From the IMG/VR virus record IMGVR_UViG_3300031998_000032, positions 1 to 44,041 of that record: a DNA stretch of 44,041 nucleotides, one strand, 5' to 3'. Source of the stretch: a virus. Taxonomy: Duplodnaviria > Heunggongvirae > Uroviricota > Caudoviricetes. The notes beneath the pieces were generated by a model. The model saw nothing but the letters and a program-made list of their open reading frames with translations. It was not told the DNA's origin and did not search any database. Shown one piece after another: positions 26,442 to 36,098 of this stretch (position 1 is its first letter; each line of letters starts with the position of its first letter). The position numbers were made by a program, and so were the translations under genes.

Positions 26442-26741
26442 ATGATAACGAGTGAGCTTATCTCAAAAAAGAAAGGTGCTTACGAAGCATCTATCAGAGC
26501 CGATTACGTAGACGGAGCGTTTCACTCCGTCTCTTTCGGCGTGGTGACAAAGAACGGTGAGCCGTTGGACTTATATCTCTATCTCTCGGAGTACGGCCTT
26601 GAACATTCCTATTCTGGTGAGGACAAAGACAAGGTGGATGAGATTGTTGCACTCTTGGGCGCGAAACTCGCCAAAGATACGGGTATTACGTTCAGCGAAA
26701 GACCGCAAATGGATATTAACCCTCAAATCGAAGGAGAATGA
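26442..26741 (+). CDS. Hypothetical protein
   Basis: ATG at 26442 follows the previous stop by 1 nt; its TGA overlaps the next ATG (ATGA). Confidence 0.6.
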   Translation: MITSELISKKKGAYEASIRADYVDGAFHSVSFGVVTKNGEPLDLYLYLSEYGLEHSYSGEDKDKVDEIVALLGAKLAKDTGITFSERPQMDINPQIEGE

Positions 26742-28012
26742 ATACTATGACATTTTCGACTGTTGCCTTGTATAAAGCCGCCAAAGCATCGGGCGGTACG
26801 ATATACAACGCATTGGTCAACTCAACTAAAGTAAGTGACACTGTTGTCAGCTTCATCACGGACATAGGACAGACAGCCATAGACGCGATGAATCCCATAG
26901 TGGAAGAGCCTTACGGAGAGATAGGAGACACCCTTCTCTATTGTAGCACCGACTCAAAGTTCTATTGGCTGAAATCCCGCGCAGGAATCAACGCAGGAAC
27001 GGTGGGATGCTCTTTCGCCGTCACGTCAAAGCTGACTAACTATACGATAATCGGCACTCTCATTCATAGAGTCAAGGGTGAGGGACTGATTATGTCCGAT
27101 TCTCTTGGTGGCATCCCGTGGTGTAGGACGAACTCATACAGTCAGAGCGACCAATCAACGTGGGCTATTACGTTCAGCAATATGCCTAACATACAACACG
27201 CAAAGACGAGAAAGTCAATAACAAGACATCAAGCCTATGCGAGTCTTGGATTGGATATGAGAGAGAGGTTGGGCAGTGGATATAACCAATACTCCAATCC
27301 CTTCCCAAGAAGCGCGTGGGACGCTATGATGGCCGCTTATCAGGCAGGCTCGGTCACGGCAAGCAACGCTTCTGGCGGGACGACATATGACACGTCGGCA
27401 AACTGGACTTGGAAGGTTGAGAAAGTGGCCGCAGGCGGTTCTCTTACGGGTAACACCATAAAGGCTACTTTTTCATTCAAGACATCGCAAGGCGCGAACA
27501 CGGGCTACAACCCTGCCGATTGGGATTTCAAGTTTGACCGTTGGTATAAGGATTGTATGGAGATATATTGCATCGCTCCGAACAGCTCTGCCTACGAAGG
27601 TTCTTCAACCGAGTTAAGCGGAAGGGAGAACACGAGAAGGATGCTTGAATTTATCTCCACATATAATAACGGCAAGGCTACGGCAAGTCAGATAAATGCC
27701 ACCGCGAGCGGCAACTGCGCAGTAGCCTGCGACCTGTATTATAAGATTGCTACGGACAACGCGAAGTTCGGACAACACAAATGGTGGCTTCCGAATCTGA
27801 CGGAGCTTGCTTATGCCACCACCCACGACAGAATACTTTTCAAGAAGGGTATCAACCTCGGAGGTAACTATTGGTGGAGTTCAACGCAGTATTCGCAGTA
27901 CAACGCTTTCTACGCGAACACTTACTCGGACAGCGTTATATCGAGCAACCGCATCAAGTGTAGCGGCTTTACAGTCCGCGCCGTCTCCGCTTATCAATTT
28001 CCTAATTCCTAA
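26738..28012 (+). CDS. DGR target protein with C-terminal C-type-lectin-fold variable domain
   Basis: WWLPNLTELA...NYWWSSTQYS...VRAVS is the CLec-type DGR target signature. The 3' end carries the VR. Confidence 0.88.
   Translation: MNTMTFSTVALYKAAKASGGTIYNALVNSTKVSDTVVSFITDIGQTAIDAMNPIVEEPYGEIGDTLLYCSTDSKFYWLKSRAGINAGTVGCSFAVTSKLTNYTIIGTLIHRVKGEGLIMSDSLGGIPWCRTNSYSQSDQSTWAITFSNMPNIQHAKTRKSITRHQAYASLGLDMRERLGSGYNQYSNPFPRSAWDAMMAAYQAGSVTASNASGGTTYDTSANWTWKVEKVAAGGSLTGNTIKATFSFKTSQGANTGYNPADWDFKFDRWYKDCMEIYCIAPNSSAYEGSSTELSGRENTRRMLEFISTYNNGKATASQINATASGNCAVACDLYYKIATDNAKFGQHKWWLPNLTELAYATTHDRILFKKGINLGGNYWWSSTQYSQYNAFYANTYSDSVISSNRIKCSGFTVRAVSAYQFPNS
27884..27997 (+). repeat. DGR variable repeat (VR)
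   Basis: Ungapped match to 28530-28643. The 13 differences in 27884-27990 all lie opposite TR adenines; one non-A difference at 27994/28640 lies at the 3' end. Confidence 0.95.
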
Positions 28013-28017
28013 ACCCC

Positions 28018-28043
28018 TGCTCCCGCCCCTCAAGGCGGGGGCA
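28018..28043 (+). promoter_or_regulatory. GC-rich hairpin downstream of VR (DGR target-recognition hairpin)
   Basis: TGCTCCCGCC-CCTCAA-GGCGGGGGCA: 10-bp stem with one G:T and a 6-nt loop, starting 5 nt after the target stop codon. Confidence 0.7.
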
Positions 28044-28059
28044 ATTAAACCTCAAAACT

Positions 28060-28464
28060 ATGTCAACGGGACTTGCAAGATTTAGATTCTACAAAAACTT
28101 GAAAGAAATCAAGAATCTCATAAGAAAGGAGGTCATAGAGCGTATTCCAAAGGCTCACAGGCTTCCCGATGCAATCTTCCTTAAAGAGCATTGCTCGATG
28201 ATGATAAGGCTCACTGCGGCCATTTATCTCACCGATGCGGAGGACTTGAGAACAAAGGAGGATTATGTGAATCAGATACTCTTTGAGTTGTTCCTATTGA
28301 CAGACGAGGTGGAAGAACAGGAGATAGCACATATTGTATCTCAAAGCACAGCGGCGGGCATATACATAAAGATTAGAACAGCCCAAGACGAGATAATGAA
28401 ATTCAAGAATTATCTCAAAAAGAAGTCAGATTCCGATAGTTTAAGGATTGTCGGAGAGAACTAA
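28060..28464 (+). CDS. avd: DGR accessory variability determinant (Avd-like four-helix bundle)
   Basis: 134 aa, helical, located between target and TR. IPKAHR resembles the Avd (F/I)PK..R motif. Confidence 0.7.
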   Translation: MSTGLARFRFYKNLKEIKNLIRKEVIERIPKAHRLPDAIFLKEHCSMMIRLTAAIYLTDAEDLRTKEDYVNQILFELFLLTDEVEEQEIAHIVSQSTAAGIYIKIRTAQDEIMKFKNYLKKKSDSDSLRIVGEN

Positions 28465-28475
28465 ACGAGTTATCT

Positions 28476-29810
28476 ATGATAAGGGGTGTTAACTCTCATT
28501 TAGAGTTTTGTCACTATAACACCGTTAGGACGCAGTATTCGCAGAACAACGCTTTCAACGCGAACACTAACTCGGACAACGTTATATCGAACAACAACAA
28601 CAAGTATAACGACTTAACAGTCCGCGCCGTCTCCGATTACCAAGATGATGAAGGGTTCATTCTTTTCTTTACGGGTATGCTCGCCGCTTACTATGAGTGC
28701 AGGAGAAACAAGAGAGGCTCTATAAGTGAGATACTATATGAAATCAACGCCATAATGAACACCCTCGACTTGGCCTATGACGTATATACAAAGACATACA
28801 AGGTCGGGGCGAGCATCTGTTTTCTAATCTATATCCCTACGATAAGAGAGGTCTTTGCGGCCTCATTCACGGATAGGGTGCTGCACACTTGGATTGCCTT
28901 AAGAATAGAGCCTTATCTCGAAAGATACCTTCCAGACTGTACCTATTCCAACAGAAAAGGTCGCGGCACATCGGGCGCAGTCAATGCGTTAAGGAAGATG
29001 ATAGACGAGCATCCTGATTACTGGATATGGAAATTCGACCTACAAGGATTCTTTATGTCAATAGACAAGAGAATACTATGGGGTGAGTTTGAGCCTTTCA
29101 TAAAGGACGCTTATAAGGGCGGCGATTTGGAGTATCTTGTTTACGCTACGAGGATGGCTCTGTTTAATGCCCCGCAGTTTAACGGCATCCGTATGTGTGA
29201 AGAATCCAAATGGGACGTTCTTCCTAAAAGCAAATCCCTGTTTGACAATCCTTGGTGGAAAGGCCTCCCTATAGGAGATTTGCTGTCACAGATGATGGTA
29301 GGCTTCTTCCTAAAGCCCTTTATCGACTACCTCAATTCTCTTGGATTTACCCTCATATCCCATTATGTTGACGATTTCGTGGTTATGCACGAGGATAAGG
29401 AATATATCCTTGAGTCAATCCCGAAGATAAGAATGTGGCTATGGGAGAATCGCGGGCTGACCTTGCATAAGAAGAAATCCTATCTTCAACACGCAACGAA
29501 GGGCGTGAGGTTTCTCGGCGCTGTCTTGAGGTTGAATGTTATCTTTGCGGGCGAACGTACAACGCTCAATGCTTTTGCTATGAAACTGCCGAGGTCTCTG
29601 AATAAGACTCTTCAGAAGGTCAACTCCTATCTCGGATTTTTTCGACAGTATATGACCTACGGATTGAGAAAGAAATTGGCCGAAAAATGCTTTAAGAAGT
29701 TCCATAGTAGGATATACTTCGGGAGAGCATATCTTAAAATGGTGGTGAGGAAGAAATCAAAAAGAAAACGCGCTTTGCGGAATAAGTGGTACGAGGAAAA
29801 GCAAGAATGA
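28476..29810 (+). CDS. DGR reverse transcriptase
   Basis: Motifs AYYECRRNKR, REVFAASFTDRVLH, KFDLQGFFMSIDK, GLPIGDLLSQ, catalytic YVDD and GVRFLG. An alternative in-frame start is ATG 28677, downstream of the TR. Confidence 0.95.
   Translation: MIRGVNSHLEFCHYNTVRTQYSQNNAFNANTNSDNVISNNNNKYNDLTVRAVSDYQDDEGFILFFTGMLAAYYECRRNKRGSISEILYEINAIMNTLDLAYDVYTKTYKVGASICFLIYIPTIREVFAASFTDRVLHTWIALRIEPYLERYLPDCTYSNRKGRGTSGAVNALRKMIDEHPDYWIWKFDLQGFFMSIDKRILWGEFEPFIKDAYKGGDLEYLVYATRMALFNAPQFNGIRMCEESKWDVLPKSKSLFDNPWWKGLPIGDLLSQMMVGFFLKPFIDYLNSLGFTLISHYVDDFVVMHEDKEYILESIPKIRMWLWENRGLTLHKKKSYLQHATKGVRFLGAVLRLNVIFAGERTTLNAFAMKLPRSLNKTLQKVNSYLGFFRQYMTYGLRKKLAEKCFKKFHSRIYFGRAYLKMVVRKKSKRKRALRNKWYEEKQE
28530..28643 (+). 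repeat. DGR template repeat (TR)
   Basis: Adenine-rich copy of the VR: 38 A in 28530-28636 and 11 in-frame AAC codons. Confidence 0.95.
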
Positions 29811-30601: not shown

Positions 30602-30634
30602 CAGGCGCAGGTCTTCGGGCTTGCGCTTGTTTTT
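30602..30634 (+). terminator. Intrinsic terminator
   Basis: CAGGCGCAGGTC-TTCG-GGCTTGCGCTTG: 12-bp stem, UUCG loop, T5. Confidence 0.8.
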
Positions 30635-30730: not shown

Positions 30731-30841
30731 ATGGCAAAAACAAAAGTAAAGGTGAAAATTAAAGCGAAGCCCACCAGTGGTCGACCAAAGCCGCTCGCAA
30801 CCAAGATGGGTGTAACTGTTGACGGTAAGAAACTGCATTGA
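30731..30841 (+). CDS. 36-aa Lys-rich peptide (not in the ORF track)
   Basis: MAKTKVKVKIKAKPTSGRPKPLATKMGVTVDGKKLH; its stop overlaps the next start (TGATG). Confidence 0.55.
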   Translation: MAKTKVKVKIKAKPTSGRPKPLATKMGVTVDGKKLH

Positions 30842-31218
30842 TGAATAAGAAGATCGTTCTCATATCACTCAAGGTCGTACCTTGCGTCGGTGCGCTGAGC
30901 TGCGCCGGCAATTCACTGCTTTCGTACTTCGGCATAGATCTTACTTGGTTAGGATACGCAGTTATTATCGTCTTCATATTGTCCTGGTATTTGTTGGCGA
31001 GATATTTCCAATTTTGTTCGTTCTACTTCATGCTTCTCTATTATATCATCACCTGTGAGGCCCTGAATATAATAGACTGCAAATACCACCTTCCATTCTC
31101 GGATAAGCATATGTTCGTGCTTCATGTCTCCTTATTCGGGTTCTACGCACTCTTATATACTTACCTCCATGTCAGAGATACAAGAAAGATTAAGCAGCAT
31201 CTTACTGAAGACCGCTGA
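30841..31218 (+). CDS. Multi-pass membrane protein
   Basis: About 125 aa with three to four hydrophobic segments; ATG at 30841. Confidence 0.7.
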   Translation: MNKKIVLISLKVVPCVGALSCAGNSLLSYFGIDLTWLGYAVIIVFILSWYLLARYFQFCSFYFMLLYYIITCEALNIIDCKYHLPFSDKHMFVLHVSLFGFYALLYTYLHVRDTRKIKQHLTEDR

Positions 31219-31468
31219 CGGATTGAAAACCGGCAATACACATCTCGATGAACCCGAGATGGAATTTCTGTTGGATACGTTCAATGAGGTCACTTCTCCC
31301 GACATCAGCACCTATACCGCCATCAAGTTATCCGGATACAGCAAAAGTGAGTTCTACAAACTTGTATCTGACGGATTGTTACCCAAGGGCTATCACGTCC
31401 AAGGGTTTAAGGAAATCCGCTACAACAAAGAAAGGCTACTCAAGGCTTTGAAGAAACTCAAGTCTTAA
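31169..31468 (+). CDS. Helix-turn-helix DNA-binding protein (excisionase/AlpA-like HTH)
   Basis: ISTYTAIKLSGYSKSEFYKLVSDGLLPKG...GFKEIRY is the MerR-superfamily HTH pattern. The likely start is ATG 31169. Confidence 0.7.
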   Translation: MSEIQERLSSILLKTADGLKTGNTHLDEPEMEFLLDTFNEVTSPDISTYTAIKLSGYSKSEFYKLVSDGLLPKGYHVQGFKEIRYNKERLLKALKKLKS

Positions 31469-31495
31469 TATAAACATCCCATTATAAGCCATTTG

Positions 31496-31545
31496 CGGCG
31501 CATATCGGACTCGTTATTTTTCCGGTGTGCGCCGTTCTATTTTTG
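31496..31545 (+). promoter_or_regulatory. 14-bp hairpin followed by a -7 promoter box
   Basis: CGGCGCATATCGGA / TCCGGTGTGCGCCG (two G:T) at 31496-31534, then TATTTTTG at 31538-31545, upstream of ATG 31606. Confidence 0.55.
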
Positions 31546-31605
31546 CCATATCAATCGCGATTGTGAGAACTAAACTTAATTATTCACAAACTAACGCTAA
31601 TTTAT

Positions 31606-32490
31606 ATGGCAGAAATTTATCAGTTGCCCGAAAACGGCAACAACAACGGAAGCATTCCGTTTTCTATCCCCATTGGCATGGGTAATGGATTTGGTGGAGG
31701 TTTCGGCAGTTTCAATAGCATCGCTGACCTGTTTGGCCTTGCTATCATCGCCTCGATGTTCGGCTGGGGTAACAACGGCTTCGGCGGCTTCGGTGGATGG
31801 GGTGGCAACTCCGGTGCTGGATTCCTCTCTAACCAACTCAACAACGATTCAGGCCGTGAGCTTATCATGAACGCAATCAACTCTAATGGCGAGGCTTCAC
31901 GCACCGCTATCCAGAGTCTTGCCAATATGCTCGGCCAGGACTTCAACCTCGTGAACGGCGCTGTTCAGAACGTACAGAACGCACTTGCAACTCTCGCTTC
32001 ACAGCAGGGTATGTCAACCCTTCAGATCGTGAACGCTATCCAGAGTGGTGACGCAAGTCTTGCCTCTCAGTTCCAGAAGTGCTGCTGCGACAACCAGCTT
32101 GCCATCTGTCAGCAGACCAACGCTCTCCAATCACAGGCTGACCGTAACGCCAACTCTATCCTGAACGCCATCAACGCTCAGACAGTTGCTATGGATAATC
32201 AGTTCTGTGCCCTCAAGGAGCGTGAGCTGCAGTCTAAGATCGACACTCAGGCTGACATCATCACTCAGCTCCGCGGCCAGATTGACAACGCAAACCAGAC
32301 CAACCAGATCATCGGTTATGTCAACGGCGTCATCAGTCCTCTGCAGACCAAGCTGACTGAGATTGAGAATAAGATGCCCAACACCGTACCGGTACAGTAT
32401 CCCAACCTTATGGCAGTGAACAACACTCCTTATAGCGGTGGCTACTACGGAGGTGGCTATAACGGCTTCGGCGGTAACATCGTATTCTAA
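31606..32490 (+). CDS. Gly/Asn/Gln-rich low-complexity protein with a CCCD motif and coiled coil
   Basis: 294 aa: G/N/F-rich N-terminus, one hydrophobic helix, Q/N-rich helices, KCCCDNQ, and a YGGGYNGFGG tail. Confidence 0.85.
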   Translation: MAEIYQLPENGNNNGSIPFSIPIGMGNGFGGGFGSFNSIADLFGLAIIASMFGWGNNGFGGFGGWGGNSGAGFLSNQLNNDSGRELIMNAINSNGEASRTAIQSLANMLGQDFNLVNGAVQNVQNALATLASQQGMSTLQIVNAIQSGDASLASQFQKCCCDNQLAICQQTNALQSQADRNANSILNAINAQTVAMDNQFCALKERELQSKIDTQADIITQLRGQIDNANQTNQIIGYVNGVISPLQTKLTEIENKMPNTVPVQYPNLMAVNNTPYSGGYYGGGYNGFGGNIVF

Positions 32491-32509
32491 AGCATAAGGA
32501 GGATTGGTT

Positions 32510-32851
32510 ATGGGATGCTTTAGTATTACCACCAACGCAGGAGGAATACCTTATCTGACTACTTCCAACGTGACGGTCTCCGACACCTCGGTTGACCTCG
32601 CGCTGGGGTGGAGAAGGGATAGGCTCGCACCTGTCGGATATTTCACTGTGAGACTCGCAGATGAGATACCCGCTGGTACCACCACCACCCTGCCCGTCAC
32701 ACTCTCTCTGAACGGAGTCACACGGAACCTTACTTTGTTTGACGGCACTGCAGTGACCGTTGCAGACCTTATCGGAGGTACAGGGGCCATCCTTGTATTC
32801 AACGACAGGTTCAACAACATACTGCAGTTGATGTCTCGCACGGTAGTTTAA
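32510..32851 (+). CDS. Beta-rich hypothetical protein
   Basis: ATG 32510, preceded by TAAGGAGG (32495-32502); Thr/Val-rich strands. Confidence 0.75.
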   Translation: MGCFSITTNAGGIPYLTTSNVTVSDTSVDLALGWRRDRLAPVGYFTVRLADEIPAGTTTTLPVTLSLNGVTRNLTLFDGTAVTVADLIGGTGAILVFNDRFNNILQLMSRTVV

Positions 32852-32881
32852 CGGAGTATTAACAAACAAAAGTGATTAACA

Positions 32882-33430
32882 ATGGATTTTCAAAGTCTTG
32901 GCGCTGGTTCGCCATTTTATATCCTGAGAAAGGGCGATAAGCCCACTCTTGAACAAGGTGTAGTTAAAGAGAAAACCGCACCGCAACCAAAGTATCAGCA
33001 GCAGACACCCGGCGTTTACAACGGCATGGGTATGCAGCACGTAATAAGTATCACCGTGACTGTCAACGGCAACGACAGGGTTATTCCGGATGTGCCGGTC
33101 AACGTGGAGATAGCCGCTCGCGGCAACGAGACATTCACCGGTAGCAGGGAGGCTATGATCCAGGCTGTGGATAGCATGATACAAGCCTCTAAGAAAGCCT
33201 TGACTGAGGTTGACTATCACAAGATGATATTGACTGAGGGAGATAAGATGCTTGAAAGCCTCAATCCCAACTATAAGGAAGAGAAACTGCGGGCACAGTC
33301 CATTATCGCACTGCAGGAAAAGAGTAACGCCCAGGACAAGCGTCTGGCGACCCTTGAACAGCAGAGTGCTGAGATGCTTAATATCTTGAGGGAACTGAAT
33401 GGCGGGCCGGCCAAGACAGCGAAAAACTAA
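32882..33430 (+). CDS. Hypothetical protein with beta N-domain and C-terminal coiled coil
   Basis: 182 aa; heptad pattern in QEKSNAQDKRLATLEQQSAEMLNILREL. Confidence 0.75.
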   Translation: MDFQSLGAGSPFYILRKGDKPTLEQGVVKEKTAPQPKYQQQTPGVYNGMGMQHVISITVTVNGNDRVIPDVPVNVEIAARGNETFTGSREAMIQAVDSMIQASKKALTEVDYHKMILTEGDKMLESLNPNYKEEKLRAQSIIALQEKSNAQDKRLATLEQQSAEMLNILRELNGGPAKTAKN

Positions 33431-33444
33431 AAACCCTTACTACA

Positions 33445-33663
33445 ATGAGTTGGATTTTTGTTGACAAGGAGAGCGAAGGCTCAAAAGAGCAGATGCGCTC
33501 ACAGATGCGCCGCAATATGCGCGGTGGTTATCGTAGCGGTGGCAGTTATCGTGAGGATTACAACGATGGCTATCGCCAGGGTTACAAGCACGGTTATGAG
33601 GATGGTGAGGAGGACGAGATGGAAATGCGTCGTTCTCGCGACTCTCGCGGCCGTTTCATGTAA
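33445..33663 (+). CDS. Small Arg/Gly/Tyr-rich disordered protein
   Basis: 72 aa with RGGYRSGGSY, GYxxGYxxGY repeats and an RRSRDSRGRFM end. Confidence 0.7.
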   Translation: MSWIFVDKESEGSKEQMRSQMRRNMRGGYRSGGSYREDYNDGYRQGYKHGYEDGEEDEMEMRRSRDSRGRFM

Positions 33664-33669
33664 GAATTT

Positions 33670-33699
33670 GGGGCAGGGTGTAATGCCTTGCCCCTTTTT
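33670..33699 (+). terminator. Intrinsic terminator
   Basis: GGGGCAGGG-loop-CCTTGCCCC followed by TTTTT. Confidence 0.7.
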
Positions 33700-33723
33700 A
33701 TAAACCATAAATACTTATAAGAA

Positions 33724-34122
33724 ATGAAACAATACATAAGCAAGGGAGAGGCAATCTACCAAGATGAGAACCACGGCCTCTTCAGTAAGAGATTGGCTGA
33801 ATGGGCCATCGGTATGATGGAATCCAAGGACCCAGATACAGGTAAAGCAAAACCTGTCAAGATGCGTACCGTTGATGAGGTGAAATCTGTCCTCAAGGAA
33901 AATGGCGTGGTACTTCCTGACGAGTTCATATATACCGCATGGTATCTGTTTATGATGGCCATAGCGGATTACCCCAAGACACTCAAGACAGATGCCGACA
34001 GAGCTTCTTTTGTAGAAGAGACCATCTGTGATCCCGACGGTTGCCCGGAGAATGTTCTGAGTTGCTTTGCGGCTAAGATGTGCAATGCCGGAGAGCCTAT
34101 CTATTGGGAATTGTACCTGTAA
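33724..34122 (+). CDS. Hypothetical helical protein
   Basis: 132-aa ORF with an AT-rich start context; family not recognised with confidence. Confidence 0.7.
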   Translation: MKQYISKGEAIYQDENHGLFSKRLAEWAIGMMESKDPDTGKAKPVKMRTVDEVKSVLKENGVVLPDEFIYTAWYLFMMAIADYPKTLKTDADRASFVEETICDPDGCPENVLSCFAAKMCNAGEPIYWELYL

Positions 34123-34139
34123 TCCAAAATTCCACGGTT

Positions 34140-34526
34140 ATGCGAGAGGTATATATTGACGTAGATGGATATTGGGGTGTTCTCTTATGCTTTGATTACT
34201 CGCGAAGGGATTGGCCCCGTATGCGTTCTATTATGGAGTCGTTCGGATTGGATGAGTATAAGACCATTGAAGCCATTGATGTGTTGAGACATCGCAACAC
34301 AGGTATGTCTGTCTCCAGGAGTGATATCACTATGAGCGTCATGTTTGTCGGTCCGGCTACCGACAGGGAACAGTTCTTTGACACACTCGCACATGAGATA
34401 TATCACGTGCAGGTGGCCATCTGTAATCATTACGGAGTGGAACGTGACGGTGAGGATGCCGCCTGGTTGCAGGGATACCTGATGAGAGAATCCACGAGAG
34501 CTATCATACCGTATATGTGTGATTGA
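34140..34526 (+). CDS. Putative zinc metallopeptidase (HExxH)
   Basis: DTLAHEIYHV followed by GEDAAWLQGYL as a candidate third-ligand helix. Likely start is ATG 34140. Confidence 0.55.
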   Translation: MREVYIDVDGYWGVLLCFDYSRRDWPRMRSIMESFGLDEYKTIEAIDVLRHRNTGMSVSRSDITMSVMFVGPATDREQFFDTLAHEIYHVQVAICNHYGVERDGEDAAWLQGYLMRESTRAIIPYMCD

Positions 34527-34806
34527 TATGCACTGCGCTACTTTACTTGCCCTGACGTTTATATGTGTGGCATTTTACCATTTCAAACTGGGGTCTGCAC
34601 TCGGTATTATATCCGATGAGTCGGATGATCCGGCGTATGCTTCCTTCCTGTTTGTTTTCGTCTATTCGGCATTAAAGGCAGGTAATATCATTCACGCATT
34701 CGCTCTCGCTTTTCTACTCGCTTATATCTCACGTTGGATCGATATCTTATTATCGGTATTGGACAGTTTCTATGAGAAAATTAAAACCAAGCATTCAAAA
34801 AACTAA
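34519..34806 (+). CDS. Small multi-pass membrane protein
   Basis: About 95 aa with three hydrophobic segments. Confidence 0.6.
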   Translation: MIDMHCATLLALTFICVAFYHFKLGSALGIISDESDDPAYASFLFVFVYSALKAGNIIHAFALAFLLAYISRWIDILLSVLDSFYEKIKTKHSKN

Positions 34807-34818
34807 CAAACAGATGTT

Positions 34819-35319
34819 ATGACAAAAGAAATTCAGGAAAGATTAGATGATTTTTTTGAGATCTTGAAGACCTCAAAAAAAGACAGTGCATTTGATATCT
34901 TCAAAACGGCGATAAGTGAGATGATGGATTTCGCTTATGAGCGTGATCCGTCGATAGTACAGACCTGGCTTGATAACTTGGGCGCCGTAGAGTGGCAGAA
35001 CTACATCAACAAAAAGGAAGCAGAGGCTATTGTGGCTGAGATGGAACCTAAGGCTCCGTGGACCATAGAGCAATGGGATAAAATCTTGGAAGCCAACGAA
35101 CTCGACAGAGAGAAGGCTCCTTTTTATAATCCATATGCCTTATATGTGGTTATGAGCAGCATATACAACCTCCATGCGCAGACGTTGGCAAAGATAGTAG
35201 GTCAGACCATCGACGAGATCCCCGAGGATGAGTTCTTCCAGGCAGTATACTTCCTTGCGCTCGACCGGTTAAAGAAGAACGACGCAAATATGGATGTACG
35301 GAATTGGTACAATCTGTGA
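34819..35319 (+). CDS. Hypothetical helical protein
   Basis: 166 aa with NYINKKEAEAIVAEM...PWTIEQW...YNPYALYVVM, a pattern recalled from gut phage accessory cassettes. Confidence 0.7.
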   Translation: MTKEIQERLDDFFEILKTSKKDSAFDIFKTAISEMMDFAYERDPSIVQTWLDNLGAVEWQNYINKKEAEAIVAEMEPKAPWTIEQWDKILEANELDREKAPFYNPYALYVVMSSIYNLHAQTLAKIVGQTIDEIPEDEFFQAVYFLALDRLKKNDANMDVRNWYNL

Positions 35320-35422: not shown

Positions 35423-35454
35423 TAAAAGCAAACCGCCATCTTCTCAGACAGCGG
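35423..35454 (-). terminator. Terminator of the minus-strand lysis cassette
   Basis: On the minus strand: CCGCTGTC-TGAGAA-GATGGCGG (two G:U pairs), followed by TTTGCTTTT. Confidence 0.6.
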
Positions 35455-35483
35455 CCGGCAGAACCATGTTCTAACCAATTTAC

Positions 35484-36098
35484 TTATGAAACGAATTTCT
35501 GTAAGATAGATATAATGATTTTCTTAAAGAATTTGCGGTAGTTGATGAGAAGCCAACCGAATAGTATATATGAAGCGTAGAAGCGCGTCTTGTCCCACCA
35601 CGTGTAGTCACGCTCGACATACTCTGTAACAGTCTGATGGTTTTCAGTGATATCGGTGGTCGTATGCTCTTCTTTCTCTGACTCGGTTATGGTAGTTACC
35701 GGCTTCTCGTATTCAACCGGTATATCCTGTTCCTTTGTTTTGAGATTATGGTAAAGCGTGCCGTCAGGGTTGATCTTGGCGTCACTGCTGCAGTATCGGT
35801 TCTCAAGATGGGATGAGTCACCTATGATATGATTGACGCTCTCTTGGGCCGGTATATGGACGTACGTGGTGTCATGCACGTATTCAGTCACTTTCTCATA
35901 CCGGATTTCAGTACGCACGCTGTCGCTTGACTCATGATTGTTGTTGTTGTCGGTCGCCACCTTCCTGCACGGACAGCAGCCGAAGACGAAGAGAAGGACA
36001 ACCAGGATGCAGAACATCATGGTGGGTTGCAGACAGCCGTTGTTGTTCAGCTGCTCGTAATAATCCCTGATGGCTTGGTTGTTCTCTTTTTCAGTCAT
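35484..36098 (-). CDS. Unimolecular spanin-like lipoprotein
   Basis: Hydrophobic signal with lipobox VFGC, a polar beta-rich periplasmic region and a C-terminal transmembrane helix (WWDKTRFYASYILFGWLLINY); last gene of the lysis cassette. Confidence 0.7.
   Translation of the reverse strand: MTEKENNQAIRDYYEQLNNNGCLQPTMMFCILVVLLFVFGCCPCRKVATDNNNNHESSDSVRTEIRYEKVTEYVHDTTYVHIPAQESVNHIIGDSSHLENRYCSSDAKINPDGTLYHNLKTKEQDIPVEYEKPVTTITESEKEEHTTTDITENHQTVTEYVERDYTWWDKTRFYASYILFGWLLINYRKFFKKIIISILQKFVS

Follow-up and report, generated by a model that had tools for sequence, protein, structure and literature searches.

The window analysed here comprises positions 1–44,041 of a 108-kb phage record from IMG/VR (IMGVR_UViG_3300031998_000032) that CheckV rates as complete. 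Between positions 30731 and 35319 it carries a block of eleven co-oriented open reading frames (ORFs; g01–g11), all present on the forward strand and with the compositions given in a preliminary description that was made from the sequence alone. The block is a composite, and its heart is a portable six-gene cassette, g04–g09, common to many unrelated Bacteroidales phages. Compositions and hydropathy were computed for each block protein, and the genes are as follows.

30731–30841 (+): g01, 36-aa Lys-rich peptide (28% Lys) with a GRPKP AT-hook-like motif
30838/30841–31218 (+): g02, 125-aa multi-pass membrane protein with 3–4 hydrophobic segments
31124–31468 (+): g03, small putative DNA-binding protein with a below-threshold match to an excisionase/MerR-type helix-turn-helix (HTH_17)
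31606–32490 (+): g04, 294 aa, 13% Gly, 13% Asn, 9% Gln (phrog_16490, E 1e-36)
32504/32510–32851 (+): g05, 113-aa all-beta protein (phrog_31654; 166 clusters at 50% identity)
32882–33430 (+): g06, 182 aa (phrog_28898, E 5e-22)
33445–33663 (+): g07, 72 aa, 17% Arg, 14% Gly, 8% Tyr (alignment A6)
33724–34122 (+): g08, DUF7841 helical protein (PF25223, 39.2 bits against a cut-off of 25.2; phrog_38431)
34140–34526 (+): g09, predicted minimal zincin-type metallopeptidase, 128 aa (phrog_1365, E 6e-7)
34519–34806 (+): g10, 95-aa membrane protein with hydrophobic segments, local
34819–35319 (+): g11, second, diverged DUF7841 protein, local (PF25223, 32.9 bits against 25.2)

A conserved six-gene core

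Homologues of g04 in IMG/VR contigs, species-representative genomes and GenBank phages define 55 distinct loci, 45 of which extend at least 3.2 kb downstream and were used for counting. Among these 45, g05 is detected in 36, g06 in 36, g08 in 33 and g09 in 36; g07 is detected in 20, a lower bound because the gene is short and of low complexity. The order g04-g05-g06-(g07)-g08-g09 is collinear in all 45 loci, and the core proteins have median identities of 36–62% and minima of 21–33%, with g09 the most divergent (median 36%). A DNA-level search of the phage collection gave no match. Co-occurrence across gut phages had been set beforehand as a test of the preliminary description, and it holds for the six genes g04–g09, in fixed order. 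The dedicated multi-gene system proposed there stands for this core, since its genes co-occur and are collinear throughout, but not for the rest of the block: g01–g03 are optional, accompanying the core only in loci L005–L007, L040 and L053 and in Steigviridae cr116_1, and g10 and g11 look like local additions.

The carriers are diverse and include a siphovirus-like phage bearing a diversity-generating retroelement (DGR), Steigviridae, Suoliviridae, the Bacteroides uniformis phage C3_41T2LP, unclassified phages, and prophages in Bacteroidales metagenome-assembled genomes (MAGs). They are gut and rumen Bacteroidales phages, crAss-like and rumen Prevotella-type phages included, and the cassette was not found in phiCrAss001. 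Almost all genome matches are to Bacteroidales MAGs (Prevotellaceae, Bacteroidaceae, Muribaculaceae and Paludibacteraceae), on contigs of up to 539 kb. The hosts are thus Bacteroidales, and the recurrence in Firmicutes phages that had been claimed reduces to non-Bacteroidales matches on just three contigs of 3–5 kb, binned to Treponema or Clostridia. The label 'spore-coat-like' also falls away: Pfam, NCBIfam and PHROGs gave no match to spore-coat families (Cot or exosporium), none of the phage homologues inspected is so annotated, and the host Bacteroidales do not sporulate.

The position of the cassette varies among these genomes. In siphovirus-like contigs it closes the late operon and comes immediately after the giant tail proteins or the DGR target; in Suoliviridae it is within the structural block; and in Steigviridae cr116_1 it is between the L,D-carboxypeptidase and the gp31/major capsid protein homologues, at the lysis–capsid junction. 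Lysis genes are found within 7 kb of the cassette in about 17 of 27 loci, and about 10 loci have none nearby. A DUF7841 gene lies immediately upstream of the g04 homologue in Suoliviridae, as the N-terminus of a 200-aa protein (E 1e-43; 146–148 bits).

Transcription signals and expression timing

The preliminary description placed a terminator before the block, a hairpin with a promoter and a further terminator within it, and a convergent lysis cassette at its end, and all of these were found.

30602–30629 (+): intrinsic terminator of the preceding unit, with a T-run behind it (−19.8 kcal/mol, z −5.15)
31495–31535 (+): 15-bp hairpin followed by a T-run, terminator of g01–g03 (−26.5 kcal/mol, z −5.74)
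31538–31545 (+): Bacteroides-type −7 box, TATTTTTG, matching the consensus and overlapping the T-run of the 31495–31535 hairpin
33670–33694 (+): intrinsic terminator ending the g04–g07 unit (−19.7 kcal/mol, z −3.94)
35431–35456 (−): terminator of the convergent lysis cassette, from a terminator scan, marking the block end

Because of the signals at 31495–31535 and 33670–33694 the block is predicted to form three transcription units (g01–g03, g04–g07 and g08–g11), so that it is not the single eleven-gene cassette first described. In 23 of 33 loci a TAnnTTTG box precedes the start of g04 by no more than 160 nt (mostly 52–79 nt), where about two would be expected from the window-wide rate (32 TAnnTTTG matches on both strands of the 44 kb). 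The G+C fraction at third codon positions (GC3) of g04 is 0.634, the highest in the block, compared with 0.616 for the major head protein gene. In amber-recoded phages (L027/L028, cr109_1, cr52_1, cr4_1 and cr272_1) each g04 homologue contains one to five in-frame TAG codons, a mark of late genes (structural and lysis) in gut phages that use recoding. The TAG codons of these relatives, together with the position at the end of the late operon, argue for late expression of the cassette; with the promoter and GC3 added, expression is predicted to be both late and strong.

Amber-recoded carriers of the cassette include L027 (1292–3680), L028 (7001–7621) and the g04 homologues of L001, L003, L036 and L037, and the g09 homologue of L027 contains two in-frame TAG codons.

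The g04 protein

The signature protein g04 has a three-part layout in alignment A4. Its head is rich in Gly, Phe and other aromatic residues and encloses a hydrophobic helix of ~16 residues with a conserved Asp. The rod that follows is rich in Gln, Asn, Ala and Ser, has heptad character and carries an invariant CCC cluster, and the C-terminal part consists of a conserved Pro-rich stretch and a Gly/Tyr-rich tail ending in Phe. The family is large, with at least 7,785 clusters at 90% identity (7,785 of 8,000 scored candidates at E 1e-3). None of the members listed has a Pfam domain, and their names are 'hypothetical protein' throughout apart from one generic IMG label; homologues in GenBank phages had earlier been annotated as 'viral fiber' or 'spike', and the epsilon-crAss paper does not discuss its 'spike' homologue. 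A search of the ESM Atlas with g04 and g09 returned only viral clusters of hypothetical proteins. Longer fused forms of g04 were not found, which is weak evidence.

No 19-residue segment of g04 exceeds a Kyte–Doolittle mean of 1.6, below the level of a transmembrane (TM) segment, and a role for g04 as a membrane anchor or spanin was rejected on this basis. None of g04–g09 has a signal peptide or lipobox, and the core thus does not fit holins or two-component spanins, in which the i-spanin has an N-terminal TM helix and a periplasmic coiled coil and the o-spanin a lipobox signal peptide. Membrane anchoring had been put forward as a feature of the whole system; with g10 in no other locus, g02 in few, and g04 below TM-level hydropathy, it is not a conserved one.

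The distal part of the g04 rod (A4 columns 201–300, residues ~175–250) differs between proteins that are otherwise similar: it has two allelic versions that cannot be aligned, and the QLAMCQQT motif is duplicated in one of them. The two alleles point to recombination inside g04.

Products of the other block genes

The g05 gene probably starts at ATG 32510. An AlphaFold2 (AF2) model of its product from a 75-sequence alignment is all-beta (pLDDT 88, pTM 0.78), and its best fold match is bead III of the Pa193 tail fibre gp47 (residues 246–339; Z 5.7, root-mean-square deviation 3.1 Å, 88 of 113 residues). This match stands alone: the next Z score is 2.8, only 20 of 48,161 PDB chains reach Z 2, and Foldseek gives E 0.13. 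Weaker rows include tailspike domains, a capsid spike and collagen trimerisation domains. The likeness of the model to a tail-fibre bead is a lead, below the safe level for a fold match. Bead III belongs to the trimeric beads-on-a-string shaft of gp47, and the coordinates matched are those of an AlphaFold model fitted into a map (PMC11456595). Two candidates concerning g05 were discarded: its invariant N-terminal Cys as a site of lipidation or a nucleophile, since the residue is lost in distant family members, and a match to a 7,790-aa adhesin, which at ~11 bits per repeat reflects Thr-rich beta-strand composition.

The AF2 model of g06 (pLDDT 69) contains a small beta-barrel (residues 1–87) and a helical hairpin or coiled coil (89–172). 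Foldseek gave no match for it, and a VIA Z of ~7 to domain I of EF-P (KOW/SH3-like) is at background level. Matches in BFVD are all uncharacterised phage proteins, among them the 188-aa neighbour of the g04 homologue in cr109_1. The g06 homologues of L012 (9084–9605; TAA) and L032 (7001–7561; TGA or TAG) contain an in-frame stop, possibly reflecting a broken gene, a sequencing error or recoding. The small protein g07 has two conserved motifs, GYRQGYKHGWED and a C-terminal RRxRDSRGRY.

Both g08 and g11 belong to DUF7841, a family without a known function, and are 23% identical. The g09 ORF opens at GTG 34080 and its true start is likely ATG 34140, giving 128 aa as in relatives. The HExxH motif and a downstream Glu (His85, Glu86, His89 and Glu105) are invariant among 16 sequences that are 21–70% identical, so that g09 has a conserved zincin-like motif with a predicted third metal ligand. 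No Pfam family is reached at threshold by g09, and PADLOC and NCBIfam are likewise below threshold. One homologue each has a hit to Peptidase_M78 (E 0.031) and to a SprT-like family (E 0.012), with neither given by g09 of the window itself; the nearest named Atlas cluster is Peptidase_M78 (ImmA/IrrE; 0.87), a lead only; and the label 'PolyVal metallopeptidase superfamily' comes solely from the annotation of the OR296439 homologue. In L009, L010, L011 and L013 the opposite strand encodes a second, diverged HExxH zincin paralogue (130–184 aa) a short way downstream of the cassette. It is beside early or replication-type genes, suggesting that these four phages carry two zincin copies under different expression regimes. 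Of the local genes, g10 has a homologue in none of ~60 related loci and g11 has none in related loci at E 1e-3.

In the upstream unit, g01 is likely a genuine small DNA-binding peptide, given its GRPKP motif, the overlap of its stop with the g02 start (ATGA), and its conservation with g02–g03 in L005–L007 and L040. Its homologues, 53–65% identical, are immediately upstream of g02 in L005, L006/L007 and L040. The g02 gene probably starts at ATG 30841; its product has no family match in Pfam or PHROGs, and homologues are upstream of g03–g04 in L005/L006, L040, L053 and Steigviridae cr116_1. The HTH_17 match of g03 misses the Pfam cut-off (E 0.058, 14.1 bits against 27), as does its cr116_1 homologue at 21.1 bits, which bears the annotation 'terminase small subunit/excisionase'; g03 may still be a divergent HTH. 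Its true start may be internal, as relatives are 100–104 aa. Control of the system by this HTH had been proposed; it finds no support, as the match is sub-threshold, the transcription unit is separate from that of g04, and g03 is present with the core in a minority of loci.

Scans of all block proteins against Pfam, PHROGs, NCBIfam and PADLOC returned only DUF7841 and PHROGs without function, and profile searches of g04, g05, g06, g08 and g09 against PDB sequences gave nothing significant (best E 0.0037 over 35 residues, plus coiled-coil noise). A relation to T5.077–079 was discarded because no block protein matches the corresponding PHROG. The earlier statement that no block gene is of a standard type is upheld in library, profile and fold searches, in which none maps to a characterised function. 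No paper was found on DUF7841 (full-text name search), MPTase-PolyVal or C3_41T2LP.

Interpretation of the cassette

Among Bacteroidales phages the cassette is very widespread, and it is uncharacterised and predicted to be late. It probably encodes an accessory virion fibre or another late accessory of a known kind, with a minority chance of something categorically new. The reading that we favour, tentatively, is an accessory virion fibre or appendage, such as a whisker, head fibre or side fibre, made with a DUF7841 helper and a small zincin. In this scheme g04 would be a coiled-coil stalk with sticky Gly/aromatic ends, in which the cysteine cluster could lock chains together, and g05 would supply a beta domain resembling the beads of trimeric tail-fibre shafts. 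The beta-barrel and coiled coil of g06 would make it a partner or adaptor, and g07 would be a small charged cofactor. From the next transcription unit, g08 would act as an assembly helper and g09 as a processing enzyme, while g01–g03, with their membrane protein and small HTH, would be an optional upstream unit and g10–g11 local additions. We infer the fibre assembly, the virion attachment, and the helper and peptidase roles.

The fibre reading is favoured because of the late, strong expression predicted for the cassette, its position, the long coiled coils in g04 and g06, the g05 bead lead, its mosaic spread, and its failure to overlap with the head fibre protein gp29: a gp29 homologue is present in 35 phage records and a g04 homologue in 25, with no record in common, and no gp29 could be detected in five crAss-like genomes that carry the cassette. 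Unrelated phage families are well known to exchange fibre modules, as with the tail-fibre genes of P2, Mu and lambda. Several points weigh against this reading. The structurally studied crAss-like phages all lack the cassette. The g05 match is below the safe level at Z 5.7 and is to a chain that is a fitted AlphaFold model (PMC11456595). No known fibre anchor, receptor-binding domain or Tfa-type chaperone was matched in family, PHROG or PDB-profile searches, and g04 at its ends and g05 along its whole length are well conserved, unlike receptor-binding tips, which are usually hypervariable. The hydrophobic helix of g04 and its FG/GY-type low complexity are unusual for fibres. The disjunction of gp29 and g04 follows phylogeny and may be meaningless, and the proximity of lysis genes in about 17 of 27 loci fits an envelope role equally.

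Such a role, in which the cassette would act late at the Bacteroidales envelope through outer-membrane disruption, control of release, or blocking of re-adsorption or superinfection, is rather unlikely. The Gly-rich hydrophobic head of g04 would sit in the membrane and the coiled coil would span the periplasm. The genes within 7 kb are a holin, an endolysin or a gene for a 204-aa spanin-like protein, and they occur so in at least five lineages; the cassette converges on the lysis genes in the window; its carriers differ in virion type and agree in host order; and g02, a small multi-pass membrane protein, adjoins the endolysin in cr116_1. Set against these are the lack of a TM-level segment in g04 and of a signal peptide or lipobox in g04–g09, the loci without a lysis gene nearby, and the absence of g02 and g10 from the conserved part of the cassette. 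The window moreover already encodes an endolysin and a membrane protein, as well as a protein that has a hydrophobic anchor at either terminus, and phiCrAss001 lyses without the cassette. An intracellular polymer is quite unlikely; here g04 would self-assemble as an intermediate-filament-like structure or condensate, with g07 as co-scaffold and g09 for processing, to give a mesh, shell or compartment organising assembly or shielding phage DNA. It would account for the keratin-type layout of g04, in which a Gly/Phe/Tyr-rich head and tail flank the coiled-coil rod, for the RGG and GY motifs of g07, typical of phase-separating proteins, and for the strong-looking expression signals, conserved partners and invariant zincin motif. 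The coat, condensate or shell and its maturation by the peptidase were drawn from composition, however, and no part has a homology or fold link to filament, chimallin, encapsulin or condensate systems. Late timing, as indicated by TAG codons and position, fits poorly with shielding of incoming DNA, and the closest match to the g05 fold is in a virion fibre. The more specific proposal that g04 is a new kind of structural polymer, a keratin- or FG-like protein whose Gly/aromatic ends and CCC-locked coiled coil would self-assemble and, with g05–g07 and after trimming by g09, build a mesh, sheath or condensate within or surrounding infected Bacteroidales cells or virions, is similarly doubtful.

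It is improbable that the cassette is an effector set, in which the zincin and its partners, packaged with the DNA or made late, would cleave host defence or regulatory proteins. The 'PolyVal' annotation in OR296439, the invariance of HExxH…E, the zincin paralogue beside early genes and the Atlas lead to Peptidase_M78 are consistent with it; the lack of any PADLOC, Pfam or NCBIfam match at threshold and the divergence of g09, the least conserved core member, are not, and the fibrous g04–g06 trio, the best conserved part, would be left unexplained. That there is no system, and that unrelated small morons travel together by chance, is very improbable. The uniqueness of g10 and g11 to the source phage, the presence of g01–g03 in few relatives and the division of the block into three units would agree with this, but for g04–g09 it is largely refuted by the collinear order, maintained down to 22–35% identity and across families. 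The remaining probability lies with functions outside those considered.

Comparison with known systems

In phiCrAss001, gp21 and gp29 are head fibre proteins, gp29 being encoded among lysis genes beside the capsid genes, and its authors expect unidentified analogues of the head fibres in other crassviruses (PMC10172136). The cassette occupies the same lysis–capsid junction as gp29 in Steigviridae cr116_1. It has no sequence similarity to gp21 or gp29, however, and no phiCrAss001 chain is among the g05 fold matches; it also has six genes, including a zincin, and its products are only putative virion proteins. The lambda stf-tfa, P2 H-G and Mu S-U modules resemble it in their location at the end of the tail genes, their exchange across families and their combination of fibrous proteins with downstream helpers. 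Unlike these mosaic tail-fibre modules, the cassette has no detected Tfa or receptor-binding domain, and its proteins are short and separate, with conserved tips. The alignment of g05 with bead III of Pa193 gp47 (PDB 9b45) is a further likeness, although its Z score is modest.

As in phage morons, g04–g07 have their own predicted promoter 5′ and terminator 3′, a variable insertion site and a patchy presence among relatives (present in cr116_1, absent from phiCrAss001). They differ from morons in forming a co-adapted multi-gene set, in occurring also in virulent crAss-like phages, and in signals that look late rather than lysogenic. The Gly/aromatic-rich head and tail of g04 around a coiled-coil rod recall keratins, crescentin and FilP in architecture only; there is no homology, and the g04 rod is shorter (~190 aa). 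ImmA/IrrE (Peptidase_M78), SprT-like and MPTase-PolyVal proteins share with g09 the HExxH and downstream Glu, small size and carriage by phages, and give the weak hits of single homologues, but g09 is below the family thresholds, has no adjacent Xre-type repressor and is not fused to a polyvalent protein.

crAss-like phages are the most abundant viruses of the human gut. The g04 family has more than 7,700 clusters at 90% identity, yet no name, Pfam family or literature was found for it, and the cassette has escaped study because every cultured, structurally solved crAss-like phage lacks it. The cultured B. uniformis phage C3_41T2LP (OR296439) carries it, with homologues of g04, g06, g08 and g09 and, where g05 would be, a 180-aa gene, making its role directly testable. 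A virion appendage would bear on the adhesion of gut phages to mucus or to capsule-covered hosts, and a system acting at the envelope, or forming a polymer inside the cell, would add something new to the cell biology of phages. Should the polymer reading of g04 be true, it would be a new class of phage-built material, present in a large proportion of the Bacteroidales phages of gut and rumen, crAss-like ones among them.

Neighbouring genes

The remaining features of the window near the block are listed below.

Left part of the window: major head protein gene (phrog_29)
Right of the major head protein gene: 2,003-aa ORF and further giant tail ORFs
26738–28012: DGR target
28060–28464: 134-aa accessory ORF of the DGR
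28476–29810: DGR reverse transcriptase (phrog_1423, E 1e-60)
3′ of the block (−): convergent set of a 204-aa protein, a 177-aa membrane protein and an endolysin (phrog_315, E 9e-34)

A full DGR comprising target, accessory ORF and reverse transcriptase (26738–29810) is thus immediately 5′ of the block. Tail protein, reverse transcriptase and lysis genes are also grouped with the cassette in Suoliviridae cr52_1, and L043 has a reverse transcriptase upstream of the cassette. The 204-aa protein (35484–36098, −) has an N-terminal hydrophobic segment ending in the Cys-rich FGCCPC and a C-terminal hydrophobic segment, an arrangement reminiscent of unimolecular spanins. Its homologues adjoin the cassette in L015, L016, L020, L025, L035 and L038, and crAss-like records give related genes the annotation 'LysB-like lysis regulatory protein'.

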